Source: Asaia bogorensis (lineage in GTDB: Bacteria > Pseudomonadota > Alphaproteobacteria > Acetobacterales > Acetobacteraceae). Taken from it: DNA of 64,000 nt. Positions within the stretch are counted from its first letter, which is position 1. Every line of letters begins with the position of its first letter. This document shows positions 12,084-33,494 of the stretch, one piece after another. The position numbers and the translations under genes were made by a program. The notes under the pieces were generated by a model, which saw nothing but the letters and a program-made list of their open reading frames with translations, ran no database searches and was not told the DNA's origin. The stretch spans positions 1,923 through 65,922 of the forward strand of contig CAMCDA010000004.1 of NCBI GenBank assembly GCA_945873195.1, read 5' to 3'.

Positions 12084-13259
12084 GTGCTTCATTGCTTCCC
12101 TACCCCGTCGTTCGTTAAGACGGGGCGTTACGTCAGGCGCGGCCGAACCAGCGGGAGATGGCGCATTTCGCTCAGGGTCATTCGACATGTTCGTGGGCCG
12201 CGCTCGGTTTGGCGGCGCATCCGCATCCCGGCGGTGCTGGCGTTGCTGTGCCTGGTTGGGGTGACGGTCTGGGCTGTCCGCGAACGGGCCTCCGCCCCGG
12301 CCAACCCGGTCGAGACCCGCGTCGAACCTGTGCGCCAGGCCCGTAATCCGCCGACCCGGATCGAGTCCCGGCAGGTCCCGCTGCCACCCGGGGACTGGCG
12401 CATGCTCGCGCGCATCCCGGCGGAGGGAGAGGAGTCCCAGGCGCCCCAGGCCAGCATGGTGCTGGTGCGGCTGAACGGGCGGGATGTCGATGCCGCCGTG
12501 CTGGTGCAGGTCAATCGGTTGGGCCATCGGGTGCATTGGGGCCTGCCGCCGGCCTGCGCGCGGGACGATTTCATCCCCCGCCGCGTGCTGTATGCCTCGG
12601 ATCACGACGGGTCCTGCGCCTATGCCGCCTTCGCCGATGGCACCGGGCCGCTGACCGGCGTGCCGATCGACCCAGCCTGGCAACGCGCGATGCGAGAGGC
12701 CGTGGATCGCGGCTGGAACGTGCCGGCGACATGGTTGGCGGTCGTGTTCCGCAAGACAGATCCGGAAGATGCGCTGCAGATCCGGTATCTGTTTCATCCC
12801 TGGCCGATCGAGCAATCGCAGCCGCCGATCTCGGCCGCATGGCGCCGGATTCAGGCGGATCGGCTGGCGTTGTGGATCGAGGCCACGGCGCCCCGGGTCA
12901 GCGCCGCGTTCCGCGACCGCCTGCGCACCGGGCTGGACGCGACACTGACCGACCCGGAACAGCCGGTCGGAAAGGACGGTGATCCGACCAAGGACCGCGA
13001 CGCCGCGGCTCTGGATGAGGCCAGCCGAACCAGCACCGCGCGGGCGATGTCCTATCGGATGTTCGCCTCGATGGCGGATTTCGGGGTGCTGTGGCTGTAT
13101 CTGGGCAATGCCGTGACGGCATCGACGCTGGCGACGCTGAAATTCGCCGCGCAGGGGGCGACGAGCGCCACGCATGAGTATGTGTGGTCGCTGTTGGCGC
13201 CGCCGATCGCACAGCATGACCTGCCGGGCGTGGGCGTGGAAACCCCGCTGCCGCGCTAG
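12084..13259 (+). CDS. Membrane-anchored protein: unknown Cys-containing domain plus C-terminal DUF2061-like hairpin (start uncertain)
   Basis: N-terminal TM (PAVLALLCLVGVTVWAV); QVPLPPGDWR...C...CAYA domain; C-terminal RAMSYRMFASMADFGVLWLYLGN...THEYVW. Confidence 0.7.
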   Translation: MLHCFPTPSFVKTGRYVRRGRTSGRWRISLRVIRHVRGPRSVWRRIRIPAVLALLCLVGVTVWAVRERASAPANPVETRVEPVRQARNPPTRIESRQVPLPPGDWRMLARIPAEGEESQAPQASMVLVRLNGRDVDAAVLVQVNRLGHRVHWGLPPACARDDFIPRRVLYASDHDGSCAYAAFADGTGPLTGVPIDPAWQRAMREAVDRGWNVPATWLAVVFRKTDPEDALQIRYLFHPWPIEQSQPPISAAWRRIQADRLALWIEATAPRVSAAFRDRLRTGLDATLTDPEQPVGKDGDPTKDRDAAALDEASRTSTARAMSYRMFASMADFGVLWLYLGNAVTASTLATLKFAAQGATSATHEYVWSLLAPPIAQHDLPGVGVETPLPR

Positions 13260-13296
13260 ATAGCGCCCCGGTCAGCGACCAGGGCGCGTCCCGTCG

Positions 13297-13587
13297 TCAG
13301 GACTTCGGCGTGGACCCGAGATTGACCTCGATCTGCCGGCCGCCGTACCACATATGCGCCAGGTAGCCGCCGAAGATGCCGCCGACGACGACGCCCAACT
13401 CGGTGGAGAACAAGGCTTCCCCAACAACGATCCCGCCGATGATTCCGACGCCGACCGCGACGATATGGGCGGGGCGAATGACGATCGTTGCTTCTGTCGG
13501 CGTGCCGGCGGCGGCTGGTTGCGCGAGCGCGGGTTGCATCGTGAACGCCATGGACACCGCGAACGCGGCGGGCAGAACTGACTTCAT
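13297..13587 (-). CDS. Small signal-peptide / Gly-zipper membrane protein (96 aa)
   Basis: MKSVLPAAFAVSMAFTMQPALA signal; two GxxxG-rich helices. Confidence 0.75.
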   Translation of the reverse strand: MKSVLPAAFAVSMAFTMQPALAQPAAAGTPTEATIVIRPAHIVAVGVGIIGGIVVGEALFSTELGVVVGGIFGGYLAHMWYGGRQIEVNLGSTPKS

Positions 13588-13841
13588 CTGGTGTGACCCC
13601 TTGGGTTGGCATTGCGCCGGCGGCTCAGGTCGCGCTGGCGTGTCTGGACGTTGAACCACTCCGTTCCGAATTTCAACCATGGGATGTGATCCGCGTGGCT
13701 TTGCCCCGACCTGTGACCAGATCGGCACGATGCCTGAATATGCGCGTGATCCGCTTGATTCTTCCGGGAGGTGGCCAGACATAGGAAGTATCGCCGGTTC
13801 GGCCGCTTTGCCGAACGGCTCCAACCGAGGCAGGTCTTGCC

Positions 13842-14495
13842 ATGCATCATTCGTTTCGTCCCTGGCGGTCCGGTCGGTTCCCCGGCCTGATGGCGGCTCT
13901 TCTGGCCACCGTGGCGCTTGCCGCCCCGGTCCGTGCCGCTGATCCGCCTCCCGCTGCCCCCCCGGTTGCCCCGGGCCAGGCCATGACAGCCGAGGACCTG
14001 GCGAAATCAGCCGAGGAAATGGCGCGTTCGGCCGGCGAAGTGGCGAAATCCGTCGGCGGGGCGGTCGGTGGCGCCATCGGCAGCCTGTGGAACGACGTGA
14101 CCAGCAAGATCGCCCCAGGCCCGCCGACCGATCATCTGCCCGCGCAGATCAGTGAGGAAGACAAGCAGTTCTTCGCGATCCTGGAAACGATCGGCCTGCA
14201 ATTGAAGGACGTGAACGTCAGCAAGGGCCTGATCCCCAGCGCGAGCTACCGCTTCGTCGCCGCGCGGGAACCCTTGGATACCGATATCGCCAAGGCCGAG
14301 GCCCTGCTGCGCGCCTATCGCGACGGTAACGACGGCATGCGCGCCCGCGCCAAGCAGCGGATCGCGCGTTCGACGCTGGATACGGTGGCGACCGCGGGGG
14401 TCGTGCTCAGCGGGATGGATGTGACGCTGTCACCCTGGCCGGACGCCAGCTACCAGATCGCCAACAAGCCCAAGGCCGAAGCGCCCAAGCCGTAA
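13842..14495 (+). CDS. Hypothetical exported protein
   Basis: Signal peptide ending APVRA-AD; GAVGGAIG segment. Confidence 0.75.
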   Translation: MHHSFRPWRSGRFPGLMAALLATVALAAPVRAADPPPAAPPVAPGQAMTAEDLAKSAEEMARSAGEVAKSVGGAVGGAIGSLWNDVTSKIAPGPPTDHLPAQISEEDKQFFAILETIGLQLKDVNVSKGLIPSASYRFVAAREPLDTDIAKAEALLRAYRDGNDGMRARAKQRIARSTLDTVATAGVVLSGMDVTLSPWPDASYQIANKPKAEAPKP

Positions 14496-14504
14496 GCGGG
14501 TTGC

Positions 14505-14774
14505 TTACGGCTGCACGCGGCTCGCGGTGCGGCGCTCCGGGATCACGATCTGCTGGGTGGAGAAGTCGCTGGAGGTGCGGAGCAATTCGTTGATCTGCGC
14601 TTCCTCCTTCGAAAGGTCGCGCATCGCCGGCGAGTCGTTGACACGATGGCTCCAGAACGCATCCGCATAAAACGTCTGATACCAGTCCTGCACCGCGTTG
14701 ACCGTGATATCAACCATCACGGTTCCCAGCAGCGCGCCGCCTGCGATCAAGGTCGTGACCGAGAATGGGCCCAT
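14505..14774 (-). CDS. Small hypothetical protein with an N-terminal hydrophobic helix; last gene of the RND operon
   Basis: Starts 14 nt after the RND stop; TLIAGGALLGTVMVDITV. Confidence 0.6.
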   Translation of the reverse strand: MGPFSVTTLIAGGALLGTVMVDITVNAVQDWYQTFYADAFWSHRVNDSPAMRDLSKEEAQINELLRTSSDFSTQQIVIPERRTASRVQP

Positions 14775-14788
14775 GACGCGTTACTCCG

Positions 14789-17700
14789 TCAGAAGGTTTC
14801 GTAAGCCAGCTTTTCGTTCGCCGCGATGACTTTACGCAAGGCTTTTTCGCCGAACAGTTGAAACAGCAACGGTGTTGTGAACGTATCCAATAGGGTAGAG
14901 CTGATCAATCCACCGAAAATTGCAACCGCAACGGGGTGCAAAATCTCCGTCCCGGCGCTGTCCGAGCTCCAGAGCAGCGGCGTCAACGCCAACCCTGCCG
15001 CCAGCGCGGTCATCAGAACCGGCATCAGCCGTTCCGCCGACCCGCGCATTACCAGGTCGCGACCCAGCGGCATACCTTCATGAAGGTGAAGGTTGATGAA
15101 GTGGCTGACCTTAAGCAGGGAATTCCGCACGGCCACGCCGGTCACCGCGATGAACCCGATCAGCGCCGCGAGGTCGAGGTCGAGCCCCGTGATCCATAGC
15201 GCCGCGACACTGCCGACCAGCGCCAGCGGGATGTTGCCCATGATGACCAGGCACAGCACGGCCGAACGGAACCGCTGGTGCAGCAGCATGAACATCAGGA
15301 ACAGCGCGACGGGGGACAGCAGGCCGAGCTTGACGCGGGCTTCCTCGCCCTGGCGGAAATCGCCGTCGAGTACGATGTGGTTCCCGGGCGGCAGCTTGGT
15401 CTTGGCGACGACCTCTCGGACCTTGGCGACGATCCCGGCCAGATCCGAGGTTCCATCCGAATTCGCCATCACCGCGATTCGCCGCTGCCCATCCTCATGC
15501 ATGATCCTGCTCGGCCCCACCGAGCTGGTGATGGTCGCGAACGACGACAGCGGCACCGGGCCGCCTGGCGTGTCGAAGCGCATCCGTTCCAGCGCCTGCG
15601 GATTGCGGTCTTCGTTCCGCAGCCGGATGGTGACATCGAACCGCCGGCCATTTTCAATCACCTGGGAGACAACCTGTCCGTTGGTCAGGGTACCGAGGCG
15701 GCCAATGATGTCGGCGGGAATGACCCCGAACAGGGCGGCGCGTTGGTAGTCGATGGAGATGCGCTGCTGCGGCACGAACGTCTGCTGCTCCACCGCCAGA
15801 TCGACCAGGCCGTGGATACGGCCCAGCTCCACCTTCAGCTTTTCCGCGATGATGCGGATCGTTGGCAGGTCGCGGCCGAACACCTTCAAAACGATATCGC
15901 CACGGACCATGTTGTCCTGCGATTGCATGCGTTCCAGGAGGAACTGCGTGACGTTGACCTCACCCGGGAAGATCGAGATGCGCCGGCGGACCTCGGCCAT
16001 CAGTTCCTTGAGCGAGCGTCCCTGGTCGAGCTTGATCTTCAGCGGCCATTCATTGTCGTTCACCGGATCGACGTCGGAATCCCCATCGTAGCGGCCGCTG
16101 CGCCGGGACATCGCCTTGACCTCGGGGATGTCCATCAGGAACTGCTCGGCGACATGGCCGATCCGGTAGGACTCGGCGATGGAGGTATCCGGCGCGAGCA
16201 GCAGCGTGACGTAGACATTCCCCTCATTCAGTTGCGGCAGGAACGACCGCGGTAGGAACGGCACCGAGAGCATTGAGACCGCGACGCACAGCCCGGCGAA
16301 AGCCAGCACGGGGCGCGGCCGGTCCAGCACCCAGCCCAGCGCTCGGCTGTTCAGGCGCTTCAGACGATGGACCAGCACGCCGCCGTGCTCCCGGTTCAGC
16401 GCCTTCATGTTCGGGATGAAATAGGAGCACAGCGCCGGCGTGACGGTGATCGACACGATCAGGCTGACGACGATCGACACCACAAAGGCGGTGGCCAGCG
16501 GCATGAACATGCGCCCGACCTGGCCCGGCATCGCCAGCAGGGGAATGAACACGATCAGCACCACGGCGGTCGCGTACAGAATGCCCGAGCGCACTTCCTG
16601 GGACGCGCGGGCGATCACGGCCATGGCGGGCTCCGGCCGTTCCCGCCGCCGGTTCTCGCCCAGGCGGCGCATGATGTTCTCGACGTCCACGACCGCGTCA
16701 TCGACCAGTACGCCAATGCCGATCGCGATCCCACCCAGGGTCATGGTGTTCAGCGACGTGCCCATCAAGTGGAACACGATCAGGCTACTGACCAGCGACA
16801 CCGGGATCGCGAGCAGGGAGATCACGGTCGGCTGTAGCGACCCCAGGAAGACGACCAGCACGATGGCGACGATGACCACGGCGTCGCGCAGCACCAACCC
16901 GACATTGCCGATCGCCTCCTTGATCATGTCGGCCTGGCTGAAGGAGATAAGGCCGAGCTTGATGGTGGGCGGCGCGCTGGTTTGGAGGTCGGCGAGGGCG
17001 GCTTCGATGCGATCGGTCACCTGGACCGTGTTCGCCTGGGGCTGCTTGACGATCGACAGATTGACGGACGGCTGGCCATTGAACGCGGCCTGTCCCTGGC
17101 GCACGGCCGGCGCGAAGGTGACCTCTCCGACCTGGCCCAGCAGCACCGGCACCCGATCGCGATAGGCCACGACGAGGGATCGCATGTCGTCCTGGCTGGT
17201 CGTGCGGCTGATGTTGCGCAATGCGTAGCTGGTGCCCTGCACATCGGCGACGCCGCCGCTCGTGTTGCTGGCAAACCGTTCGAGCGTCGTTTCCACATCG
17301 CTGAGCGTGACGCCGAAATACTGCATCAGGTCGAGGTTGGGCGTGAATTGATAGGTCCGAACCTGGCCGCCGATGGCGAAGACCTGCGAAACGCCCTCGA
17401 TCGCCAGCAGGCGGGGGCGCACCACCCAGTCCACGTACCCCCGCAGCGCCATCGGGCTTTCGCCGCCGATGACGCCCATGTGCATGATTAGCCCGGTTGC
17501 CGCCGACATCGGTGCCAGGTTTGGGATGACGCCATCGGGTAGTTGCGACCGCACCGACTGCATGCGTTCGGCGACGAACTGGCGGTTGCGGAAATTATCC
17601 GTGCCCCAGGCGAACACCACCTGGAAATAGGCGACCGAGGCGTTGGAACTGCTCCGCACGCTGGTGACGCCGGTCAGGCCGGTCAGCGCCTGCTCGATCG

Positions 17701-17902
17701 GCACGACGACAAGCTGCTCGACCTCCTCGGCCGTGAGCGTGCCGGATTCGGCGGTCAGCACGACGGATGGCGGGCGGGTTTCGGGCAGCAGGTCGATCGG
17801 CATGTCGCGCGCGATCAGGGTGCCCCAGACCAGCAGCACCGCGGTCACGATAAGGACCAGGACGCGATGGCGCAGGCTGGCCGAGACGATCGCCGCGAAC
17901 AT
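14789..17902 (-). CDS. CusA/CzcA (HME-type) RND efflux permease
   Basis: 1037 aa; MPIDLLPE, GIAIGIGVLVDDAVVDVEN, GFIAVTGVAVRN, PVLMTALAAGLALTPL. Confidence 0.93.
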   Translation of the reverse strand: MFAAIVSASLRHRVLVLIVTAVLLVWGTLIARDMPIDLLPETRPPSVVLTAESGTLTAEEVEQLVVVPIEQALTGLTGVTSVRSSSNASVAYFQVVFAWGTDNFRNRQFVAERMQSVRSQLPDGVIPNLAPMSAATGLIMHMGVIGGESPMALRGYVDWVVRPRLLAIEGVSQVFAIGGQVRTYQFTPNLDLMQYFGVTLSDVETTLERFASNTSGGVADVQGTSYALRNISRTTSQDDMRSLVVAYRDRVPVLLGQVGEVTFAPAVRQGQAAFNGQPSVNLSIVKQPQANTVQVTDRIEAALADLQTSAPPTIKLGLISFSQADMIKEAIGNVGLVLRDAVVIVAIVLVVFLGSLQPTVISLLAIPVSLVSSLIVFHLMGTSLNTMTLGGIAIGIGVLVDDAVVDVENIMRRLGENRRRERPEPAMAVIARASQEVRSGILYATAVVLIVFIPLLAMPGQVGRMFMPLATAFVVSIVVSLIVSITVTPALCSYFIPNMKALNREHGGVLVHRLKRLNSRALGWVLDRPRPVLAFAGLCVAVSMLSVPFLPRSFLPQLNEGNVYVTLLLAPDTSIAESYRIGHVAEQFLMDIPEVKAMSRRSGRYDGDSDVDPVNDNEWPLKIKLDQGRSLKELMAEVRRRISIFPGEVNVTQFLLERMQSQDNMVRGDIVLKVFGRDLPTIRIIAEKLKVELGRIHGLVDLAVEQQTFVPQQRISIDYQRAALFGVIPADIIGRLGTLTNGQVVSQVIENGRRFDVTIRLRNEDRNPQALERMRFDTPGGPVPLSSFATITSSVGPSRIMHEDGQRRIAVMANSDGTSDLAGIVAKVREVVAKTKLPPGNHIVLDGDFRQGEEARVKLGLLSPVALFLMFMLLHQRFRSAVLCLVIMGNIPLALVGSVAALWITGLDLDLAALIGFIAVTGVAVRNSLLKVSHFINLHLHEGMPLGRDLVMRGSAERLMPVLMTALAAGLALTPLLWSSDSAGTEILHPVAVAIFGGLISSTLLDTFTTPLLFQLFGEKALRKVIAANEKLAYETF

Positions 17903-18466
17903 CTAGATCGGCCGCAGCGCGGGCCGCTTCTGTCCGCGCCGGCGCACGATCATCGACCCGAGGAGGATGCCGATTCCGCCCGCCGCCAGGGCAATCAGGA
18001 CCTTGTCCCGGAACCCGCCGCCGTCGCCGGCGACCGCGCTTTCCGACGGGGGCGGATAGATGATCTCGGCTATCGCATCGCCCGTGCCGGCGGCCGCATT
18101 GACCGAGACCACGAAGGTATCCCGCAGCCGGCCATTCAGCGCGAAGGGGCCGACGAACAGGCCCTGGCTGACCTGGTTGAGCGTGACCGGCGTGCCCTCG
18201 GCCGTCGTGATGGTCAGCGTCGCGTCGTCGGCGGGGGCGTTGTTGTCCACCCGGTCGACGAAGGCGTGCAATTTGCCATCGGCCGCGATAAGCACGACCG
18301 CGACGCCGCCGATTTCCACCACCACGCGGGGGGCCACCGGGTTGCCGTCGTCATCATCGCCGGCGCGCGCGGGGGCGATGCCGAGCAGCAGCCCGAAGGC
18401 CAGGACGGCGGCGAACAGCCATACAGGAAGACAGCGCGTGCCCGACATTCTGGTTTCCGCCTTCAT
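17903..18466 (-). CDS. Exported accessory protein of the RND operon (signal peptide plus C-terminal TM)
   Basis: ATGA overlap with the MFP stop; TAG abuts the RND ATG; VLIAADGKLHAFVDRVDNNAP resembles N-terminal domains fused to some alphaproteobacterial MFPs. Confidence 0.72.
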   Translation of the reverse strand: MKAETRMSGTRCLPVWLFAAVLAFGLLLGIAPARAGDDDDGNPVAPRVVVEIGGVAVVLIAADGKLHAFVDRVDNNAPADDATLTITTAEGTPVTLNQVSQGLFVGPFALNGRLRDTFVVSVNAAAGTGDAIAEIIYPPPSESAVAGDGGGFRDKVLIALAAGGIGILLGSMIVRRRGQKRPALRPI

Positions 18467-19992
18467 TGCAGTTGCGCCATCAGGCGGGAGCCATTGATGA
18501 CGATGCGCGCGCCCGCGGCCACACCGTCCACCACCAGGATGGAGGTGCCGTCGATCACGCGGGTTCGCACCGGGTGCGGCACGAAGGTCTCGGCGGCGGT
18601 CTGTTCCCAGACTTCCTCGACGCCCGAACTGCCCTGGGTCACCGCGGACCGGTTCAGGAGGATGCCGCGCTGGCTCTGGCCGGTGTTGACGACGGTCACG
18701 CTGACCGGCCGGCCGACGCTCAGGCCGGCGGGCGGATTTTCGATCCGGTACATGATTGGCGTGGACTGCCGAGCAACCGAGAGGCCGGAGCCGACAAAGC
18801 GCAGGGTCAGGTTGATGCCTTCCGGGGTAGTGGCCGCGGCGACCGGCGTGCCGCGCGCGGCCTCGGCGATCGCGGGATTGGACGCGGTGGCCTCGATCCA
18901 CAGGCGGGTCGGATCGATGACCTCGAACATCACCTCTCCGGGCTGGACGATCCGGCCGTTGACGGCCGATGTCGTGGAGACGATCCCGTCGGTGAGCGCG
19001 CGCAGGGCTTCGCGCAATTCCAGCATCGGCAGCAGGGCATCGCGTTCGCGGCGGAGGCCGGACAGGCGCTGTTCGGCCTGGTAGATCTTGCCTTCGCGGA
19101 ACGGCACCCAGGTGAACTGGCGCAGGATTTCCAGCGCCTCGGTTTCCAGGCGGATGTCGGTGGTCAGGCGGGTGACATCGCGGCGGACCTGGCTGCGATC
19201 GACGACGCCGATGGATGGCGACACCCAGGCAAGCGTCTCGCCCTGCTTCACCGCCTGGCCCAGGGTCGGGAAGCCGGTATCGGGCGGTTCCAGCCGGCCG
19301 GGCACGCTGGGCTGCACCGTGCCGTGCAGCGACGGGTCGGGCACGATCCGGCCCGAGATCTGCCGGACATCCGGGACATCGATCACGCGGGCCTGCTCGG
19401 TGCGGACGTTGAACAGACGTTGCAGCGGTTTGGGCACGAAAAACGACCCGTCTTCCCGCCGGTTGCTGCGGTCGTAGACGAAATTGGCGATCAGGCCGGG
19501 ATCGACCTCATCCTGCGGGCCGATCGGCATGGTGGGGGAGGGCGGGATCGCCGGCTGCTCGGGCATCCGAGCGGCGGCGCGCAACGGTTCCATCACGGGC
19601 GGCGCGGACGCCGGCGTCGCGGCTGGCACGGGGCGTGGGCGAGGCGGCGGTTCGGCGGCGCGGGGCGGCAGGATCGGCGTGGAGTTGACCCCCAGCAGAT
19701 ACGACACCTCCCACAAGAACTGGCCTGTGCCGCCGGGGATATTGGCGATGCCGGTGGCGGTCCAGGCGATCGCGTCCAGCGTCGCGCCCACGGCGGAGCC
19801 CAGATAGGACCCGGTCGCGGCCGGTTTTGGCGGCGGCGGCGCGGGCTGGGCATGGGACCTCAGGGACGGATCTTCCTCCGGCACGCGGTCGGCGATGCTC
19901 CGGTCCTGCAAACCTTGCGCCGGCACGAGGCTGGTGGAGTAGGCGATCACCGCAACCGTCAGCGTGGCCAGGCGCCACGGCGCGCGCATCAT
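18463..19992 (-). CDS. RND periplasmic adaptor (MFP) with a long Pro-rich N-terminal extension
   Basis: ISGRIVPDP...VQPSVPGRL...LGQAVKQGETLA; LRALTDGIV...GRIVQPGEVMFEVIDPTRLWIEA. Confidence 0.9.
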   Translation of the reverse strand: MMRAPWRLATLTVAVIAYSTSLVPAQGLQDRSIADRVPEEDPSLRSHAQPAPPPPKPAATGSYLGSAVGATLDAIAWTATGIANIPGGTGQFLWEVSYLLGVNSTPILPPRAAEPPPRPRPVPAATPASAPPVMEPLRAAARMPEQPAIPPSPTMPIGPQDEVDPGLIANFVYDRSNRREDGSFFVPKPLQRLFNVRTEQARVIDVPDVRQISGRIVPDPSLHGTVQPSVPGRLEPPDTGFPTLGQAVKQGETLAWVSPSIGVVDRSQVRRDVTRLTTDIRLETEALEILRQFTWVPFREGKIYQAEQRLSGLRRERDALLPMLELREALRALTDGIVSTTSAVNGRIVQPGEVMFEVIDPTRLWIEATASNPAIAEAARGTPVAAATTPEGINLTLRFVGSGLSVARQSTPIMYRIENPPAGLSVGRPVSVTVVNTGQSQRGILLNRSAVTQGSSGVEEVWEQTAAETFVPHPVRTRVIDGTSILVVDGVAAGARIVINGSRLMAQLQ

Positions 19993-21734: not shown

Positions 21735-21787
21735 AGATGTATTTTTTACCCATACGTCATCTTGGAGCGTAACGAGATGGCATCCCC

Positions 21788-23442: not shown

Positions 23443-23459
23443 CATAATGTGACATTATG
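23443..23459. promoter_or_regulatory. Perfect 8-1-8 inverted repeat, candidate operator in a divergent promoter
   Basis: CATAATGT-G-ACATTATG in an AT-rich intergenic region. Confidence 0.6.
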
Positions 23460-24779: not shown

Positions 24780-26323
24780 GCGACAGCCGGATGGCGGCGC
24801 GCGACGGGCTTGTCGCGACGGCGGCGCGCGACGGGCTTGTCGCGACCGGTCTTTCGATCACCCGCCCGGATGGCATTCCCATCCTGCGCGATACCGAGCT
24901 GCGGATCGGCGCGTCCGAGGTCGTGCTGCTGGTCGGCCCCAGCGGCTGCGGCAAATCGACCCTGCTGATGCTGTTGGGCGGGTTGCTGGATCGCGGCAAT
25001 GGCTGGCAGGTATCGGGGCAATTGTCGTGCGGCGACCTGCGGATCGACCTGGCCGAGGAACAGGCCGGCGTCGGCGGCGTGGTGTTCCAGAGCCATGCGC
25101 TGTTCGACGAACTGGATGCCGAGGCCAATCTGCGGATCGCGCGCGACCACGCGGCGGCGAATGTCGCGCCGTCGCTGGCCGCCGCCATGCTGCCGATGCT
25201 GGAGGATATCGACCCGCACCAGGCCGTCAGCGCCAGCAGCGGCGGGCAACGCCAGCGTTTGGCCATCGCGCGCACCGTGCTGACCGACCAACCGGTGCTG
25301 CTGTTCGATGAGCCGAATTCGGGGTTGGACATCATCTCCTCCCGCCGGCTGGTGGAACTGATCCGCGGCCTGTGCCGCACCATGGGCAAGCCGGCGCTGA
25401 TCGCGGTGCATCACGCCTCCGAACTGCTGCCGGTGGCCGATCGCGTGCTGGTGATGGACCCAATCCGCGCCACCTTGACCGAGGTTGCGCCGCGGATCGA
25501 GGCGTTGGAGGCCGGCCTCACCATCGCCACGCGGGCCGATCCGACCGAGGAACGGCCCCGTTCTCGGGGGCGCTGGCGGCTGGGCTCCTCGGCGGCGCCG
25601 AGGAACACGCGGCTGTATTGGTTCACCCATTACGTGCTGGGCTACATGTGGCTGCTCTGCGCGTCGCCGATCATGTTGATGTATATCGCGGCTGGGGCCT
25701 GCATTACCGGGTTTGTCACGATCTGGTTCGGGTTCAACTACTATTCCTATGGTGGATTGCTGAAATCACTGCTGCATGATGAGACCTTGGTGGGGCTGGG
25801 AACGGTGCAGGCGCGGGTGGCGCTGCCCTTGATCACGACGATTCTGTTCGTCGCGCGCAACAGCGCGGTGATCGCGGCGGATGTCGGTAACCGGGCGCTG
25901 ACCGCGCAGTTCCAGGCGATGGACAACCTGGGCATTCCAGGCCGGCTTTATGTGTTTTCGGGGATCATCATCAGCATGGGCGTTGGCTCGGTCGTGCTGA
26001 TCGTGCTGGCGGTGCTGCTGGGCGCCTGGGCCTCGCAGGAAACATGGATGGTACAGTTCCCCAACCAATATCGGGAGTTGTTTCGCAGCCTGTTCTTCCG
26101 TAATGTTATCTCGCCATCCGGTTGGCCGTCCTCGGCGATGGGTTGGGTGGTGGCCAAGGCGGCGATCAGTGGATTGCTGGCCTCGATCACGTCGATCATC
26201 ATCGCGCTGGGGCCCAAATCATCCAGCCTGGCGGTCAGCCGGTCGGTGGCCAACGCGATTGTCGTGGGCGTGATCGTGGCGCTTTTGGTGCATGCGGTGA
26301 TTTCGGCGCTGACAGCGGTCTGA
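24776..26323 (+). CDS. Fused ABC ATPase plus MlaE-like permease
   Basis: GPSGCGKST, SGGQRQRLAIAR, LLFDEPNSGLD; C-terminal LPLITTILFVARNSAVIAADVG...QFQAMDNLGI and AVSRSVANAIV match the MlaE pattern. Confidence 0.82.
   Translation: MSDSRMAARDGLVATAARDGLVATGLSITRPDGIPILRDTELRIGASEVVLLVGPSGCGKSTLLMLLGGLLDRGNGWQVSGQLSCGDLRIDLAEEQAGVGGVVFQSHALFDELDAEANLRIARDHAAANVAPSLAAAMLPMLEDIDPHQAVSASSGGQRQRLAIARTVLTDQPVLLFDEPNSGLDIISSRRLVELIRGLCRTMGKPALIAVHHASELLPVADRVLVMDPIRATLTEVAPRIEALEAGLTIATRADPTEERPRSRGRWRLGSSAAPRNTRLYWFTHYVLGYMWLLCASPIMLMYIAAGACITGFVTIWFGFNYYSYGGLLKSLLHDETLVGLGTVQARVALPLITTILFVARNSAVIAADVGNRALTAQFQAMDNLGIPGRLYVFSGIIISMGVGSVVLIVLAVLLGAWASQETWMVQFPNQYRELFRSLFFRNVISPSGWPSSAMGWVVAKAAISGLLASITSIIIALGPKSSSLAVSRSVANAIVVGVIVALLVHAVISALTAV
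24793..24846 (+). repeat. Perfect 27-bp tandem duplication (AARDGLVAT x2), in frame
   Basis: ggcggcgcgcgacgggcttgtcgcgac at 24793 and 24820. Confidence 0.95.
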
Positions 26324-26378
26324 CCGGACCCTACGATACTTTCACGGCGCGTATATCGGTTCTTGAGGAGTGACAGGC

Positions 26379-27161
26379 ATGGATCGGGATGACCAGGCAC
26401 ATGAGCGCGCGGCGACGATGCGATCGATGAAAATGCTGGCCGGGGCGGCGTTGATCGTCTCGCTGACCGGGCCGCTTTGGGTACCGAACATCCTCGCCAC
26501 TCTGAATTTCCGTTCCTCCGCCGATATCGCCGCCGAACGGAACCGGGACGACATCGTCCGGCTGGAGCAAGGCTCCGTCGGGTCCGAGCAGCGACTGAAG
26601 GCGGCCGAGGCCGCGGTGGCCAAGCTGCGGGAGGACCTGGGCCGCATGGAACAGCGGATGGCGGCGATGCGCGACGCGCTGGCCGCCGGCGCCGCGGCCG
26701 ATCTCGCGGCGGCGCTGCGCTCCGATGGCGGGTTCATGGCGGAACTGGCGGCGTTGCGCGCGGTTGCGACTCCCGCCCCCGATCTGACCGACATGCTGGC
26801 CATGATCACCCCCTTCGCGGAAACCGGGGTGCCGGGCGCGCGTGAAATCCGCCAGCGCTTCCTGCGGGAGATGGCGGGCGCGGGTTCGGCGCAGGGCGGT
26901 TCGCCGTTCGCCTGGCTTCGCCGGACGGTGCTGCTGGCGCCAGATCCGGTGGCTCAGGACGTGAACCCGCATTTGCTGGAAGCCGAGACCCTGCTGCGTG
27001 ACGACGACCTGCTGGGTGCGATGGCCGCGGCCCGCCGGATCGAGGCGCCGCGCCCCGACTGGCTGGGGGCCTGGCTCGCGGATGCCCAGGCGCGGTCCGC
27101 GGCGGATGCGCTATTGCCCCGGCTGGATCGCTGGACGGCCGTCGCCGCGCCCAAGCCATGA
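26379..27161 (+). CDS. Mitofilin/Mic60-like protein, copy 2
   Basis: GAGGAG RBS; TM; coiled coil; LAAALRSDGGFMAELAAL...FAETGVP...LLRDDDLLGAM...WLADAQARSAAD. Confidence 0.75.
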   Translation: MDRDDQAHERAATMRSMKMLAGAALIVSLTGPLWVPNILATLNFRSSADIAAERNRDDIVRLEQGSVGSEQRLKAAEAAVAKLREDLGRMEQRMAAMRDALAAGAAADLAAALRSDGGFMAELAALRAVATPAPDLTDMLAMITPFAETGVPGAREIRQRFLREMAGAGSAQGGSPFAWLRRTVLLAPDPVAQDVNPHLLEAETLLRDDDLLGAMAAARRIEAPRPDWLGAWLADAQARSAADALLPRLDRWTAVAAPKP

Positions 27162-27451
27162 GGCCGCGCCGGACGTTGGCCGGCCTGGCGCTGGGGGTGT
27201 CGCTGTTGGCCGGCGGGCCGGTGTCGGCACAGGTCGTTGTGGAACGCGACGTCATCGTCGTGCGCCAGGGCGGCGTGACCGAGGCGATGATCTCGGCCTG
27301 CGCCGGTGGCGCGGCGATCGGGGCGGTGATCGTCTGGGGCAGCGGGACGGGAGCGGTGTTGCCGACCGCCGGGTTGTTCTGTGGGCTGTCGGTGGCGGCG
27401 ACCATTTCGGCCTCGGTGGCGACTTATGCGTGGCGCTCGCTGCCTTGGTGA
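27158..27451 (+). CDS. Small signal-peptide / Gly-zipper membrane protein (97 aa)
   Basis: ATGA overlap; SACAGGAAIGAVIVWG...AGLFCG. Confidence 0.72.
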   Translation: MRPRRTLAGLALGVSLLAGGPVSAQVVVERDVIVVRQGGVTEAMISACAGGAAIGAVIVWGSGTGAVLPTAGLFCGLSVAATISASVATYAWRSLPW

Positions 27452-27529
27452 ATTGCGCGCGACCGTGACCGGGGCCTACGATGCGCCGAGCGTTTGCATA
27501 AGCATCGGCGGGCGGGGAAGGGGTTGTCC

Positions 27530-28216
27530 ATGCACACCGTGATGTTGGCCAAGCAGAAGGGCGGCGTGGGCGCGAGTACCATCGCGCGGGAGATCGGGGT
27601 GCTGGCCGCGCGCAACGGGCAGCGGGTTGTGTTCATCGACCTCGATCCGCAGGCGACTCTGTCGAAATGGTGGAACCGGCGCACGGCTGGCGCGAACGGC
27701 ACGCCGAACCCGGCGCTGGCTGCGGTGAAGCCAGACCAGTTGCTGACCGTGCTGGGGCAGTTGGCCGCCAGCGGCGGGGTGGATCTGGTGGTGATCGACG
27801 TGCCGCCCTCGATCCACAGCTTCATCCGGCGGGTGATGGACGCGGTCGATTTCGTGCTGGTGCCGGTGCGCCCGACCTCCGACGATTTCGAGGCCTTGCC
27901 GGAAATCGTTGAGATGATTGAGCAAGCGGGCCGGCGCTATGCCTTCGTCGTGACCCAGGCGCCGACGGGCCGGCGGATCCGCGCGGTGGATGAGGCGATT
28001 CCGATCCTGGCGCGCCAGGGCCGGGTGGCGGGCGTGCTGCGGTTCCGTTCGGCGTTCCCGGCGGCTGCCTCGGCGGCGCAGGTGACGACCGAGTTTGAAA
28101 CGACTGGCAAGGCCGCCGCCGAAATTCGGGAGCTTTGGGCTTTCGTGAAGGCTGAACTGCGGAAGATTGATCGGGCGGCCGCGGCGGCGGCGCCAGAACT
28201 GGCGAAGGCGTCCTGA
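27530..28216 (+). CDS. ParA-family ATPase with atypical Walker A (KGGVGAST)
   Basis: KQKGGVGASTIA, FIDLDPQA, VIDVPPS, VLVPVRPT; GGGGAAGGGG RBS. Confidence 0.88.
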   Translation: MHTVMLAKQKGGVGASTIAREIGVLAARNGQRVVFIDLDPQATLSKWWNRRTAGANGTPNPALAAVKPDQLLTVLGQLAASGGVDLVVIDVPPSIHSFIRRVMDAVDFVLVPVRPTSDDFEALPEIVEMIEQAGRRYAFVVTQAPTGRRIRAVDEAIPILARQGRVAGVLRFRSAFPAAASAAQVTTEFETTGKAAAEIRELWAFVKAELRKIDRAAAAAAPELAKAS

Positions 28217-28239
28217 GCGGCGGATGAGGAAAATTCAGG

Positions 28240-29670
28240 ATGGCCCGTAAATCGACGGTGAAGCTACCGGACGTGTTCGCCAAGCCCGGTCAGGCGCCGT
28301 CGCGCGGCACGCCGATCGAGGCCCTGCCGCGGGAGGGGGAACCGGAGCCGTCGGCGGCTGAACCCGTGCCTGCTTCGGCGGTTGCGGAGCCGGGTCCCGT
28401 GGCCAGCGCGGCGCCGGTCACCGGTGATGATTCACCGGCGTCCTGGGCGCTGGCATCTCGGCCGGCCCTGGTTGCCGGCGGGCCTGATCGCGGCCAGCCG
28501 CCCGTTGTCCCGCCGCGTCATGTCGTCGTGCCGGAAGCTGCCACCCCCGACGTGCCGGCATCGGAGTCCCCCCTGCCGAACCCTGTGAGCGGTTCGGCGG
28601 CCTCGGCTGATGCCGTGCCGACTCCGCCGGAAGCCGCCCCGGTTGCCGAGGCCTCCCCCGTTGGAGAGACCCCAAGCGCGCTGCCCCCCATTATCGCGGC
28701 ACCTACCGCCGCCCCGCTGGCGAGGCCCGTGGTTCCCCCGGCGGTCGTCGCTCCGCCTGTCCCGCCAGCGCCCACATCGACGGTTCCATCGGCGGTCCCC
28801 CCGACGGTCCCCCTGGCGGCCCCATCAACGCCCCCACCGTCCATGTCCCCGCCCGCAACGCCCTCGCGTCCGGCGCACGCCGAACCGCCGCGCCCCGCCG
28901 TCACCCTGCCATCTCCGCGCGGGCCAGCCTGGACCATCGCCATGCTCGCCCTCGGGGTCAGCCTGACGACCCCGTTCTGGTATGACGGCGCCCTCCGCCT
29001 CCTCGGCCTCACCACCACGGTCGGCCAGGCCCAGCAGGAAGACGCGCTCGCCATCTCGCGGCAGGAGCGCAAGCTCCGCGACGTCGAGCAGCGCCTGACC
29101 ACGACCGCGACCCAATTGACCAGGGCACAGGCCGACCTGACGCAGGCCGTCCGCAAGCAGGAGGAAACCGCGGCCTGGACCCGCGTCATGATCCTGGCCC
29201 GCCTCGGGGAAGCCTTGCGGCGCGGCACACCCTTCGGGCCCGAACTCGCGATGGCGCGCGGGGCGAGGGCCGCGACCGGTGACCTGACGCCGTTGCTGGA
29301 CCGGTTCGCGCCCTACGCGCCGATCGGCGTGCCGACCACCCAGGACCTCGGTCAGGATTTCCGCCGGGTCACCGACCCTGTGCTGCGGCCGGCCCGTGGG
29401 CTCAATCCCCTGGCCTGGGCCGCGACGGTCATCGCCTGGACCCCCTTCGGCCGGCCCGCGCCCGAGACCGACCCAGGCCGTCTGGCCCTGCGAGAGGCCG
29501 CGAGCCGCGTGCGCGACGGCGCCGTCACCGATGCGGCGACGATGCTGCGCCCCGTCACCGGCCCGGTCGCGGACCTGATGGCCGGCTGGCTCGCCGATGC
29601 CGACGCCCGGGCGGCGGCGGATGCGTTCAATCAGCGCATCGACGCCCTCCTGCGCGCCGGCCCCCGCTGA
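28240..29670 (+). CDS. Mitofilin/Mic60-like protein, copy 3, with a ~220-aa Pro/Ala-rich N-terminal region
   Basis: TM (WTIAMLALGVSLTTPFW), coiled coil, LGEALRRGTPFGPEL...GVPTTQDL...F...WLADADARAAAD. Confidence 0.78.
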   Translation: MARKSTVKLPDVFAKPGQAPSRGTPIEALPREGEPEPSAAEPVPASAVAEPGPVASAAPVTGDDSPASWALASRPALVAGGPDRGQPPVVPPRHVVVPEAATPDVPASESPLPNPVSGSAASADAVPTPPEAAPVAEASPVGETPSALPPIIAAPTAAPLARPVVPPAVVAPPVPPAPTSTVPSAVPPTVPLAAPSTPPPSMSPPATPSRPAHAEPPRPAVTLPSPRGPAWTIAMLALGVSLTTPFWYDGALRLLGLTTTVGQAQQEDALAISRQERKLRDVEQRLTTTATQLTRAQADLTQAVRKQEETAAWTRVMILARLGEALRRGTPFGPELAMARGARAATGDLTPLLDRFAPYAPIGVPTTQDLGQDFRRVTDPVLRPARGLNPLAWAATVIAWTPFGRPAPETDPGRLALREAASRVRDGAVTDAATMLRPVTGPVADLMAGWLADADARAAADAFNQRIDALLRAGPR

Positions 29671-29692
29671 TACGCCCCCGCTGATACGCCCC
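29661..29692 (+). repeat. Perfect 14-bp tandem duplication spanning the stop codon
   Basis: cccccgctgatacg at 29661 and 29675. Confidence 0.9.
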
Positions 29693-29703
29693 AGGTGATC
29701 TGA

Positions 29704-31715
29704 TCAGCGCGCCTCGGGGCCGATATCGGGGAAGCTGGCCGGCAGGAGGGCCGCCCGAGCGCCCCCCGCCCCCGCGCCGGCCCAGCCGATCTCATTTGCA
29801 TAGGCGATCATCGGCTTGATCACGGCATGGGCGTTGGCCAGCGTGAAGCTCTGCGCCGCATTGCCCGTCACCACCCAGGTCGTCGCGACCGTGTCCAGGT
29901 AGGCGGCGACGCGATAGGTGCCGACCTTCACCAGCGTCCGGCTCCAGAGCGACCAGCCTTGATGTTCCGGCTGCAACGCCGAGTCCTCGGCCGCCCGCGC
30001 CAGGCGATCATGGGTCTCGGCGTCGATCGCCCCGGCATCGCGGAGGCGATCAACCGGCGCGCGGGCCTGGCGAAGCAGCAGCCGGCGCGCGGTGTCGGCC
30101 GTATCCGGTGCCGGCAGCGCCGCGAGGCTCCCGGTCAGGGTCTCGGGCAATCGTCCCCGCGCGCCGAGTTCCAGCGGTTCCCGCAGCAAGCTGCTCCAGG
30201 TGACGATGGTGGCGGGATCGTCGGTGGAGTCGGGGAAATAATACCGCGCGTCCAGGAAGTTCTCCCGCGTCCTGGTCCGCCCGGTTGCCTCCAGCATGAT
30301 CGGCGGCACGACCACGCCCTCGGTCCGCAGCCGATCCCGCGCGGCGGCCCATAGCGGCTCGCCGCCGGGCTCGTCCCGCGGGATGACCCGCTTGACATAG
30401 GCGCAATACCCGTCGCGAGGCGTATCGAACGCGACCTGCACGGAAAGCAGGTCGGTGCGCCCGCATTCAGCCGGGGAGCCGATGATATTGGCCGTCGGCG
30501 CGCCATTGGCCCGCGCGATCACCAGCCCCCGCAGCGCGCCGGCCTCGATCCGCCCGAACACCGCGCCGGCCTGTTGCGGCGTGTCCTCCCGCGCCAGTTC
30601 CCGCCAGGTCCCGGGCGGCATCGGGATTTGCTTGCCGGCGACGACGGGAGTCGGTGCCGCGGCGATGCCCGGTGTGCCCATGGCCGGTGTGCCCATGCCC
30701 GGTGCGCCCATGCCCGGCGCATCCGAGGCCGGCGGCCCTGACCTGCCCGCCAGGGGGCCGGACAGGTTGATGATCGGCGTGGTGGGGGGCGTCTCCCACA
30801 CCAGTTCATTGACCATGAACACCGCGCTGTGCGTGACCATATTCCAGGTCTGCACCCAGGTGCCGGTGACCACGCTGCCAGTGACATAGCTGGCCAGGAC
30901 CAAGCCGATGGCGGTGTTCATCACGCGATAGCCGGCCAGCCGATACAAGCTCCGGGTCAGCGTGGTGGGCTCCTCGGCGTGCTCGTCTGCCCCATCCGCC
31001 GCGAACAGCAGGACCGGCATGGGCATTCTGGCATCGGGCGCGACCGGCGCGCGCATGGCGGCCAGCGTGGCGCGCCGAGCGGTCTGTGCCCAGTCGGAAA
31101 GGCGGCGGAGGGTCGCGGCGTGGGCGGTGTCGAGGCCCGCCGGACCCTCTGCCCAGGCCGCCGGGTCCGGTGAGGACGGGGACACGCCGAGGCGCATGTC
31201 GATCATGTCGCGCCGGTCGGAGACCCGGAACCCCGCGACAAGTGCCCAGGGCGGCAGCGTGCCTACGGCTTCGGCCGGCAAGGCGGGCAGCAGCGTGCCG
31301 ACGCGGTGCGGCCCGCGCGCGAAGGACACGAAGGCACAGCCCTCATGCAGGTCGCGCGATTCCGAGATCTGGGTAAAGAGCGTGCCCTCACAGGATGGCG
31401 ACGTCCCCCATCCGTCGCGGGCCGGCAGGGCATTGGTCTGGACCAGCAGGAAGGCGCGGTCGCGGGGTCGGGGCGGACCAGCAGCACGCCCGCGGTCACG
31501 CTGAGCAGGGTCCCGTTCGCGGCTTTCGCCGACCCGTGGCCGCTGGCCGCGATGCGCCAGGGGCCTTCGGGCAGGGGTATGGTCTTGCCGGCCAGGGTCA
31601 GACGCCCTGTGACGGTATCCCCGACAACGGGTGCATCGGCGGCCAAGGCGGGGCCGGCAACCATGGCGAGTAGCAGGGCGAACCATGGCACCAGAGCGAT
31701 GAGTTTGCGCGTCAT
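29704..31715 (-). pseudogene. Exported/membrane protein with two tandem [unknown Cys domain + DUF2061-like] units, interrupted by a 1-nt frameshift near 31465
   Basis: The signal peptide and TIPLPEGPWR are in one frame (ORF 31263..31751); the continuation DRAFLLVQTN...C...CAFV is in the other (ORF 29704..31686); RSLYRLAGYRV...NELVW and RTLVKVGTYRV...NEIGW are DUF2061-like. Confidence 0.7.
30665..30720 (-). repeat. 15-bp x ~3.7 tandem repeat encoding a Met/Gly/Pro linker (PGMGAPGMGTPAMGTPG)
   Basis: atg(c/g)ccggtg(t/c)gccc units at 30665, 30680, 30695 and 30710. Confidence 0.85.
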
Positions 31716-31892
31716 GACAGCTCCGACGGCGGGCGAGGGGGGCGTGAACACCGCGTCATGGTCATCATCCGATCCGGTCGTGGAATGTCAACGCGCATTC
31801 CGCCGCATCTTTTCATCATTTCCGACACTGTTTCGCCACTTGGCGGGGCGTTAACGGTATGGCAACACATCACCAGCCATAATTGCAGGATC

Positions 31893-33494
31893 ATGTCCGC
31901 AAGCGCACTGCTACCACCCGACCGCCCGTCAAACCCGTTGGCCGAACCGGCCGAACGCACCGAACACCCGCGTCTGCCGCGCTCGCTCGGCCCGATCGCC
32001 CTGGTGGTGCTGATCGGCGTGCTGGTCGTCGTCATGTTCACCGCCCTGCGTTCCCCGCTCAAGGACGACATCGCCTGGCTGCTGTATGTCGCCCGGCGCT
32101 GGATGGCCGGACGGGAGTTGTATGTCGATGTGGTGGAGGTCAATCCGCCGCTGATCGTCTGGATCTCCGTCCTGCCGATGGAATTGTCGCGCTGGTTCGG
32201 CGTGCCATCCCAGTACGTGGCGATGCCCGGCTTCATCGGCGCGGTTCTCGGCTGCGCCTGGTGGACCGCCGGTCTGCTGCGTCCGCAGGGGGGCCTGTTC
32301 GCCGACCGGCTGGTCACGTTCTCGGTGATCGGCATCATCCTGCTGGTGCTCCCGGCCGGAGAGGTCGGGCAGCGCGAGCATCTGCTGGTCGCCGCCATCC
32401 TGCCTTATCTGGCGCTGTTCGCGGGCGAATTGTCCGGGCATCGGCCCGAGCGCCGGGATGCGATCATCGCCGGCGTGCTGGCCGCGATCGGCTGCGCCAT
32501 GAAGCCACGCTATGTCGGCGTGGCCATCGCGCTGGAGGCGATTGCCCTGACCCAGGGGCTGCGGCCCTGGCGCCTGCTGCCCCTCGCCGGGGGCCTCAGC
32601 GTCGCGCTGTATGCCGGGGCGGTCGCGCTGTTCTCACCGGCCTATTTCAGCTGGGCGATACCGATGGCGCTCGCGCTGTATGGCGCGACCGACAGTTCGA
32701 TGTGGCAACTCTTTGCCGAGAGCGCCGCTCTCATCGGTGGCCAATTCGTCATGCTCGGCCTGCTGCTGCTGCGGTGGCGGCACCTGCAAGAACGCTGGGT
32801 GATCCTGTCGCTGATGGTGCTGGCGGTGGTCGGCAGCGTGATCTGCTTCCTCGATGGCAAGGACTGGTACTACCACCGCATTCCGGCGACGGTCGCGACC
32901 GTGCTGGCGCTGCTGTGCTGGGCCGGATCGGCCTTCGTCCACCGCGACCGGACCGCGCATCGCGCCCGCATGCCGCTGGCCATCGCCTGCCTGGTGCTGG
33001 TGATCCTGTTCTTCGGCTCCCTGCGCCGGTTTGAACCGCAGGTTGTCCAGGCGGTCGAGCCCGCCGCGACCACCGTTTCCCGGCTTGAGGCGATTGTCCG
33101 CAAGGAAAAGGCCCGCAGCTACCTGGCGTTCTCGGAATGGATCGCGCTGGGTTTCCCCGTGGTGAACAACACCGGGGTGGAATGGGCATCGCGGTTCGAT
33201 TCCATGTGGGCGTTGAAGGGGGAGCTGTGGCGCGCCCGCTTCGATCCCCAGACATCCCGCGACTGGCCGGTGGCGCGCTGGGTCGTGCATGACTTCCTGG
33301 CCGGCTGCCCGGATATCGCGGTCGTCGATACGCGCGAAGGCACGAACTACATCGGTGTGCTGAGCGAGGCGGATCCGGCCTTCGCGCGGGTCTGGTCGCG
33401 CTACCGGCCGATCGACTCCTTTGACGGGCTGGTCGTCTATCGCCGTGGCAAGGGCGGATGTATCGATCCCTGGATCGCGGCCGAGGGCAAATAA
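31893..33494 (+). CDS. Polytopic membrane protein, GT-C glycosyltransferase-like
   Basis: First-loop DDIAWLLYVARRW...LYVDVVEVNPPL, GQREHL, KP, WYYH; about 11-12 TM plus a C-terminal periplasmic domain. Confidence 0.6.
   Translation: MSASALLPPDRPSNPLAEPAERTEHPRLPRSLGPIALVVLIGVLVVVMFTALRSPLKDDIAWLLYVARRWMAGRELYVDVVEVNPPLIVWISVLPMELSRWFGVPSQYVAMPGFIGAVLGCAWWTAGLLRPQGGLFADRLVTFSVIGIILLVLPAGEVGQREHLLVAAILPYLALFAGELSGHRPERRDAIIAGVLAAIGCAMKPRYVGVAIALEAIALTQGLRPWRLLPLAGGLSVALYAGAVALFSPAYFSWAIPMALALYGATDSSMWQLFAESAALIGGQFVMLGLLLLRWRHLQERWVILSLMVLAVVGSVICFLDGKDWYYHRIPATVATVLALLCWAGSAFVHRDRTAHRARMPLAIACLVLVILFFGSLRRFEPQVVQAVEPAATTVSRLEAIVRKEKARSYLAFSEWIALGFPVVNNTGVEWASRFDSMWALKGELWRARFDPQTSRDWPVARWVVHDFLAGCPDIAVVDTREGTNYIGVLSEADPAFARVWSRYRPIDSFDGLVVYRRGKGGCIDPWIAAEGK

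Follow-up and report, generated by a model that had tools for sequence, protein, structure and literature searches.

MlaE and MlaA are known for the handling of phospholipids. That alphaproteobacteria build noncanonical bridges of the Mla type is illustrated by MpcEFDA, an Mla-Pqi chimera of Brucella (PMC12436622). In the same class of bacteria, Mic60 is oriented toward the periplasm, BamA was recovered in Mic60 pulldowns and a TolC-family protein in pulldowns of the neighboring Orf52, and contact sites serving the transfer of lipids were proposed in the same study; besides, the mic60 and orf52 paralogues of the Magnetospirillum magnetosome island affect the size and number of magnetosomes (10.1101/2022.06.14.496148). 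Here we describe a gene cluster at positions 11880 to 31686 of a 64,000-nucleotide (nt) stretch (the window) of the Asaia bogorensis contig CAMCDA010000004.1, in which Mla-type transport, itself a known theme, is paired with an unexpected partner, namely, proteins with a Mic60 domain; this pairing is new. The block is a real, rare, and previously undescribed cell envelope gene cluster, and a literature search (Mic60 paralogues, DUF6524, mitofilin with ParA, and Mic60 with MlaE) found no account of it; each of its orphan components carries the annotation "hypothetical." We lean toward the view, by a modest degree of confidence, that the cluster encodes one accessory envelope system, which would combine an Mla-type lipid or hydrophobe trafficking machinery lacking MCE proteins with a contact site between the inner and outer membranes.

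By frame analysis based on GC content at third codon positions (GC3; the GC content of the window is 66%), 20 open reading frames (ORFs; g01 to g20) were called between 11880 and 33494, and all of them were scanned against Pfam and NCBIfam. Coordinates below are those of the window, with + and − indicating the strand. The ORF g14 (24776 to 26323, +) encodes an ABC ATPase and an MlaE-type permease in a single 515-amino-acid (aa) chain (ABC_tran PF00005, 79.4 bits; MlaE PF02405, 38.2 bits against a cutoff of 22.5), and its Walker A, signature, Walker B, and H-loop motifs are all intact in sequence. Among NCBIfam models, its nucleotide-binding domain scored best with DevA/LolD-type extractor ATPases. 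It is coupled by a 4-nt overlap, also kept in Azospirillum, to g13 (23604 to 24779, +), an orphan bitopic protein with a transmembrane (TM) segment, a small beta domain, and a helical domain. The g13 family amounts to 84 clusters in 5.8 billion proteins, all annotated as hypothetical and without a Pfam domain, and to 103 representatives in 1.84 billion proteins. The idea that g13 contains a hidden MCE domain was not supported, as 20 members of its family gave no PF02470 signal at an E value of ≤10; the 20 ORFs of the window likewise contained no MCE domain. Neither MlaC nor STAS MlaB was matched in the 20 ORFs by Pfam or NCBIfam, and MCE, MlaC, and STAS proteins were found in none of the cluster versions examined.

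A link to MlaA was observed in distant versions of the cluster. In a genome from another alphaproteobacterial family (G056), a compact operon consists of a g13-like gene, an MlaFE fusion, a Mic60-like gene (mitofilin PF09731, 23.9 bits, E value of 2.4e-5), and an MlaA gene (101 bits), and it is followed by an alpha/beta-hydrolase gene. The version of genome G177 (locus L046), which comprises g14, g13, g12, three DUF6524 genes, a g11-like gene, and genes for a membrane-fusion protein (MFP), a TPR protein, and Gly-zipper proteins, has an MlaA lipoprotein gene (PF04333, 99.9 bits) inside it. Furthermore, plasmid pAB510b of Azospirillum sp. B510 carries a g12-like gene (59% identity), a g11-like gene, two DUF6524 genes, a g13-like gene, and the ABC fusion (55%), and it also encodes a Mic60-like protein, which scored 74.5 bits with a hidden Markov model (HMM) built from canonical Mic60 sequences only. 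The annotations there read "MlaA family lipoprotein," "DUF6524 family protein" (two genes), and "hypothetical" (four genes), and this plasmid is the only one among 72,556 plasmid records that contains g12. Locus tags of this set are AZL_RS21555, RS33575, RS21545, RS33570, RS21560/65, and RS21570/75. Because distant core operons end in, or adjoin, MlaA, the lipid and contact-site half of the interpretation gains independent support.

Three proteins in the window have a candidate Mic60 domain. The shortest, g15 (26370 to 27161, +; 263 aa; paralogue 1), consists of a TM segment, one long coiled coil, and a mitofilin-like helical C-terminal domain; g18 (28240 to 29670, +; paralogue 2) has a basic N-terminal peptide and a Pro/Ala-rich linker of about 220 aa ahead of the TM segment, coiled coil, and mitofilin-like domain; and g08 (19989 to 21086, −; paralogue 3) has a TM segment, a coiled coil, and a divergent mitofilin-like C terminus. 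By hydropathy, a TM segment was detected in g08 and g15, and the segment of g18 fell under the threshold. Profiles were compared by hhalign with a reference of 17 canonical Mic60 C termini from other alphaproteobacterial families. The probabilities were 99.5% for g15 (E value of 1e-22, 181 columns), 99.3% for g18 (7e-21), and 96.0% for g08 (3.9e-9), and the families also matched one another (g18 versus g15, 100%, 2e-41; g08 versus g18, 95.8%), whereas reversed or column-shuffled controls never exceeded 0.9%. The HMM from canonical sequences alone gave 49 bits for g15, 54 bits for g18, and 25 to 42 bits for g08 orthologues; it missed the window's own g08 at an E value of ≤1e-3. The Pfam Mitofilin model (PF09731) matched none of the three, even at an E value of ≤10. 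Indeed, the canonical Mic60 of the same genome (466 aa; contig C18, positions 3862 to 5259, followed by a HemY-like TPR gene) scored 26.3 bits, just under the gathering score of 27.4 bits, and thus this model is insensitive for bacterial members. In BLASTP, the cluster proteins reached the genome's canonical Mic60 only marginally, with an E value of 0.05 at best. The assignment of g08, g15, and g18 as homologues of the Mic60 C-terminal domain is therefore settled by profile methods only, by which it is solid, and the three mitofilin-like proteins named in the original prediction stand on the profile-profile tests although Pfam fails to see them. An AlphaFold2 model of g15 (mean pLDDT, 83) consists of a helix at residues 6 to 36, one long helix at residues 50 to 117, and a C-terminal helical bundle. 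None of the three copies is linked to hemC, hemD, or orf52; their neighbors are transporter genes.

We found that these genes travel together. With g14 as bait, 11 genome loci from Acetobacteraceae-type metagenome-assembled genomes (MAGs; 63 to 84% identity) kept the g11-to-g18 order, 8 of which also kept g05/g06 to g10. A co-conservation matrix was then compiled from 24 loci carrying g13 (Acetobacteraceae MAGs, metagenomes, and Azospirillum). In this matrix, g14 was present in 23 loci at 47 to 84% identity, the 24th locus ending at a contig end, and g12, g11, the DUF6524 pair, and a Mic60-like gene were present in most loci; the ParA-like gene, g16, and g18 occurred in 13 loci, as did the TPR protein. 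The DUF6524 pair, g09 (21327 to 21734, +; PF20134, 110.6 bits) and its paralogue g10 (21788 to 22186, +; 97.5 bits), encodes four-TM proteins and is kept in 19 of the 24 loci and in Azospirillum. In other Pseudomonadota, DUF6524 genes stand alone, and the orphan families of the cluster are not found near them. Two further orphan families lie beside this pair. One is g11 (22170 to 22838, −), a 222-aa polytopic membrane protein with four hydrophobic segments and no Pfam or NCBIfam match, which is kept in nearly all loci, including Azospirillum (30% identity). The other is g12 (22865 to 23323, −), a 152-aa cytoplasmic protein with a basic tail, which is the best-conserved small component (mean alignment identity, 64%) and has no relative in PDB or Pfam. 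In the same-genus genome G288 (L048) and in the metagenome contig L044, gene order is shuffled and the families still form one cluster; in both, the RND gene, g04, and g03 lie beside g19, the TPR protein follows the Mic60-like gene, and the ParA-like gene, g16, and the second Mic60 paralogue are absent. Co-occurrence is far above chance. The conserved core consists of g13, g14, g15, the two DUF6524 proteins, and the g12-g11 pair. Added in particular lineages are the RND/MFP operon and the ParA-like protein, along with Mic60 paralogues 2 and 3 and the DUF2061 proteins.

The distribution of the cluster is narrow. The g13 family was found in 9 of 401 genomes of the bacterial family (5 of 143 genera), in 2 of the 5 genomes of the window's genus, and, at class level, in 2 of 401 genomes. 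Because this distribution is patchy and the same-genus copy is more divergent than the copies from other genera, we regard the cluster as an accessory trait that was probably moved horizontally. A link to phototrophy was ruled out: pufLM is absent from the window's genome and from G288, and it occurs in only 4 of 10 carriers. Within the genus (n = 5), the carriers (G000 and G288) lack pufLM, and G199, G357, and G416 lack the cluster and possess pufLM; over all carriers there is no association.

Among the additions, the RND/MFP operon is headed by g08 and continues with g07 (18463 to 19992, −), a membrane-fusion (periplasmic adaptor) protein whose N-terminal region is long and Pro rich. It matched HlyD_3 (42.7 bits) and HlyD_D23 (32.3 bits), the RND_mfp and CzcB profiles stayed under their cutoffs, and its best resemblance in NCBIfam was to CzcB-type profiles. 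The 187-aa protein g06 (17903 to 18466, −), in which a signal peptide is followed by a beta-rich domain and a TM segment at the C terminus, lies between the MFP and RND genes and is kept in 12 loci at 39 to 49% identity. The permease g05 (14789 to 17902, −; ACR_tran, 726 bits) is a divergent RND protein closest to CusA/CzcA. It scored 643.1 bits with TIGR00914 (CusA/CzcA), below the cutoff of 701.45 bits, and this was nonetheless its best-scoring family; its best PDB relatives were CusA (380 bits) and ZneA (364 bits). In a phmmer alignment to 3t51_A, the Cu(I)/Ag(I) methionine triad of CusA (M573/M623/M672) is replaced by T/D/S. Moreover, TM segment 4 of g05 reads GVLVDDAVVDVEN, whose DD motif we take to be of the drug/amphiphile-pump type rather than the heavy-metal efflux (HME) motif. 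An RND permease and an MFP had been predicted and are present, but the HME label is not established, because g05 lies below the CusA/CzcA cutoff, lacks the methionine triad, and has DD in TM segment 4. No outer membrane factor of the OEP/TolC type was matched in the cluster by Pfam or NCBIfam. Downstream of the RND gene, the 89-aa membrane-anchored protein g04 (14505 to 14774, −) is kept in L007, L044, and L048, each time adjoining g05, and the secreted 217-aa protein g03 (13842 to 14495, +), which matches no Pfam or NCBIfam family, lies in L044 and L048 next to the RND gene, at 39% identity.

The other conspicuous addition is g17 (27494 to 28216, +), a ParA/MinD-family protein that scored above the Pfam cutoffs for AAA_31 (57 bits), CbiA (48 bits), and MipZ (39.5 bits) and reached 127 bits with NF041546 against a cutoff of 180. 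Its Walker A motif reads KGGVGAST (27557 to 27580), in which the P-loop lysine is replaced by alanine, and KGGVGAS is invariant in 11 of 11 g17 orthologues, compared with KGGxGK[ST] in the canonical motif; the signature lysine and the Walker A' and B motifs are retained. Since the replacement is invariant in all 11 orthologues, g17 is a conserved protein rather than a decayed gene. It is probably a nonhydrolyzing or catalytically impaired ParA-like protein, and canonical ATP hydrolysis is doubtful on the basis of the motif; as to the fold family, the earlier assignment to ParA holds. The arrangement of g17 and g18 would suit a ParA-like protein in the cytoplasm that holds a Mic60 protein facing the periplasm.

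The DUF2061 modules lie toward both ends of the cluster. The protein g01 (12084 to 13259, +) has a single TM segment, a Cys-pair domain of no known family, in whose alignment C66 and C86 are invariant, and a C-terminal DUF2061-like hairpin (20.3 bits, below the Pfam cutoff). Its ORF is open from 11880; however, the first approximately 47 codons of the long form (11880 to 12020) are antisense to the flanking gene at 10808 to 11989, with same-genus matches only as antisense, and therefore the true start is placed later, near 12084. Orthologues of g01 lie beside the cluster in L008 to L012, L067, and L048. The protein g19 (29704 to 31686, −) is a tandem duplicate of the g01-type module, that is, the module's own domain and the DUF2061 hairpin, twice. 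It scored 27.5 bits with DUF2061, above the cutoff, and matched g01 by BLASTP (E value of 9e-15); its N-terminal half matched both its own C-terminal half (2.7e-5) and g01 (3.6e-8). Because the g01-type module is duplicated within g19, the N-terminal half of this protein counts as a third DUF2061-like unit, in agreement with the number predicted at the outset. The first approximately 75 codons of g19 are Arg rich and unmatched, and orthologues align only from residue ~76, suggesting that the true start probably lies downstream of 31686. With such a later start, the N-terminal module of g19 would be without the TM segment and the GKQVPLPPGxW strand found in the other copies.

Small secreted Gly-zipper proteins accompany these modules. 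Two are clear, namely, g02 (13297 to 13587, −; 96 aa, called from frame analysis and sequence) and g16 (27158 to 27451, +; 97 aa, called from sequence), whereas the third that had been counted is arguable and could be g04 or g06. Orthologues of g02 (~40% identity) adjoin g01-type genes in L008 to L012, L048, and L067, and one or two copies of g16 occur in 13 loci. The two small Gly-zipper proteins of L046 have Met-rich stretches (MGMGM and MPEMQMPM), which hints at a copper link in that lineage only; in addition, this distant G177 cluster adjoins CopD-cytochrome c and multicopper-oxidase genes (L046:91-7560). A TPR protein of about 380 aa occurs in 13 loci (L044:7541-8683, L046:12143-13312, and 11 more; the L044 and L046 copies match with an E value of 7e-25) and shows no detectable relationship to Orf52/HemY. 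It is missing from the window version, which has g16-g17-g18 in its place.

As for the block as a whole, its divergent junctions lie at 13587/13842, 21086/21327, 23323/23604, and 31686/31758; start and stop codons overlap by 4 nt at g08/g07, g07/g06, g13/g14, and g15/g16, and g06 and g05 abut. These GC3-based calls confirm the coupled genes and the four divergent junctions of a contiguous envelope block, as first predicted, and the family scans agree with that prediction as to the ABC-MlaE fusion and the two DUF6524 proteins. Its extent, given as about 20 genes up to 33494, needs trimming: 19 of the 20 ORFs (11880 to 31686) are co-conserved members, and g20 (31758 to 33494, +), a 578-aa polytopic membrane protein (nine or more hydrophobic segments) that matches neither Pfam nor NCBIfam, is a neighbor outside the cluster because it is common to the nearest relative (L003; 84%) only. 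PADLOC returned generic ABC and P-loop matches only, and therefore no defense link is indicated. In a search for promoter motifs shared by the four divergent junctions, only one 11-mer was obtained, common to two of them. As to a simple insertion of the cluster, genomes of the same genus that lack it share a conserved left flank with the window, and the match at the right flank is only 49% identical.

In the system that we favor, the core would be the single-chain MlaF-MlaE protein g14, coupled to single-pass g13 and followed by the Mic60-domain protein g15, with the DUF6524 proteins and the g12-g11 pair accompanying them. Transport may run in either direction, g14 extracting or inserting a phospholipid or another hydrophobic molecule at the inner membrane. 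We infer that the Mic60-domain proteins, anchored in the inner membrane and facing the periplasm, possibly together with g13, assume the role in bridging or contact sites that MCE proteins have elsewhere and may keep the inner membrane near the outer one so that transfer can occur. To this core the window version would add the RND/MFP operon, which has no outer membrane factor and is headed by the Mic60 paralogue g08; g17 next to the long-linker protein g18, a pair that may cluster or place the machinery; and the DUF2061-module and Gly-zipper proteins. Several observations weigh against this proposal. The cluster in the window has no MlaA, the sole MlaA of the genome being encoded on another contig (C164), and the most distant versions (L046 and L047) are without a Mic60-like gene. 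A Foldseek search with the g15 model retrieved no Mic60 structure from PDB at an E value of ≤0.001 and only generic long-helix proteins, and a PDB profile search with g15 reached 7pv1 (a MIC60-MIC19 fusion) only at an E value of 0.22, PDB containing only short fusion constructs. The AlphaFold2 model of g13 is of low confidence (pLDDT, 63), Foldseek found no fold match for it, and PDB profile searches with g13, g12, and the g01/g19 domain found no relative. Furthermore, the RND pump g05 most closely resembles metal pumps.

This last resemblance leads to the idea of a metal resistance island, in which the RND/MFP proteins export copper or another cation and the other genes are accessory. The nearest relatives of g05 (CusA/CzcA/ZneA) and of the MFP (CzcB-type profiles) fit this idea, and so do the CopD and multicopper-oxidase genes and the Met-rich proteins of L046. 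Nevertheless, g05 falls short of its cutoff (643 against 701 bits) with all three triad residues replaced, TM segment 4 has the DD that we associate with drug and amphiphile pumps, several versions, that of Azospirillum among them, lack the RND operon, and the core is of the Mla type with MlaA; we accordingly give a metal island little credence. A closer competitor is the export or assembly of another envelope component, such as a lipoprotein, a glycolipid, a hopanoid, or the cargo of outer membrane vesicles, with the Mic60-like proteins as scaffolds only. The affinity of the g14 nucleotide-binding domain to DevA/LolD-type extractors would suit such a role, and the same is true of the MFP, which is almost always present, and of the TPR protein and alpha/beta-hydrolase lipoprotein of some versions. 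However, the permease is MlaE and the linked outer membrane protein is MlaA, both phospholipid handlers, and the cluster contains no biosynthetic genes, which makes this explanation unlikely.

The original prediction had compared the block with organelle clusters, and a new intracellular membrane compartment of the magnetosome-island type, in which Mic60 shapes necks, ParA positions, and transporters load lipid or ions, would account for three Mic60-domain paralogues next to a ParA-family gene; the mic60 and orf52 paralogues of the Magnetospirillum island provide a precedent. Yet L044, L048, G056, and Azospirillum retain the core without the ParA-like gene, g16, or the second Mic60 paralogue, and the RND pump is also absent from many versions. 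Besides, the P-loop lysine of the ParA-like protein is replaced, there is no phototrophy link by pufLM, and Pfam and NCBIfam detected no cargo-enzyme or biomineralization, shell, actin-like, CDF, or protease/PDZ genes in the 20 ORFs. We thus consider a compartment improbable: the predicted logic of curvature, positioning, and ion transport is not supported, while the lipid-supply and contact-site half of the same inference is, as MlaA is linked in distant versions. It is most improbable of all that these are unrelated neighboring operons with no joint function. Module content does differ among genomes, and DUF6524 stands alone in other Pseudomonadota, but g11, g12, g13, g01/g19, g02, g03, g04, and g06 stay together through rearrangement across at least five genera of one family and the Azospirillaceae, at 26 to 60% identity.

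Within the favored reading of a lipid-trafficking contact-site system, a more far-reaching possibility can be put forward tentatively, at rather less than even confidence. The Mic60-domain proteins may be dedicated periplasmic bridging subunits of a new MCE-less class of Mla systems (g13, MlaFE, Mic60-like protein, and MlaA), the role of mitofilin before mitochondria may have included lipid traffic between membranes, and the Acetobacteraceae cluster may be an expanded, ParA-organized, multipump version. The cluster provides a natural genetic link among mitofilin-domain proteins, an Mla-type ABC lipid extractor, and MlaA, and it thus bears on the role of Mic60 in alphaproteobacteria, on its inheritance by mitochondria, and on the origin of MICOS. 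It also assigns a context to the orphan families of g11, g12, g13, DUF6524, and the DUF2061-module proteins. If the interpretation is true, the known routes by which lipids are transported in the envelope would gain an MCE-independent design, and the presence of the core on pAB510b in cultured Azospirillum sp. B510 makes the idea directly testable.

Compared with the described systems, the cluster shares an MlaE-type permease and an ABC ATPase with Mla (MlaFEDB-MlaC-MlaA), and MlaA genes are linked in its relatives; like Brucella Mpc (PMC12436622), it is an alphaproteobacterial and noncanonical variant. Unlike both, it has the ATPase and permease in one chain, lacks MCE (MlaD/PqiB), MlaC, and STAS MlaB proteins, and contains the orphan bitopic protein g13, Mic60-domain and DUF6524 proteins, and g12/g11. 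Its Mic60-domain proteins follow the alphaproteobacterial Mic60 plan of an N-terminal TM segment, a coiled coil, and a C-terminal mitofilin domain, and, as in the Magnetospirillum island, Mic60 paralogues lie inside a specialized envelope gene cluster; they differ from canonical Mic60 in being shorter (g15) or in having a long cytoplasmic linker (g18) and in sharing operons with transporters. The pairing of an RND permease with a periplasmic adaptor in one operon is that of CusCBA/CzcCBA, with CusA and ZneA as the nearest sequences, whereas the absence of an outer membrane factor gene and of the methionine triad, the extra g06 and g04, and the Mic60-like gene at the head of the operon set it apart. 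Finally, g17 belongs to the same fold family as ParA, McdA, MipZ, and BcsQ, and the product of the next gene has a short basic N-terminal peptide. It departs from ParA and McdA in having GAS in place of GK[ST], in being absent from many versions, and in its putative partner, which is a Mic60-domain membrane protein instead of ParB or McdB.

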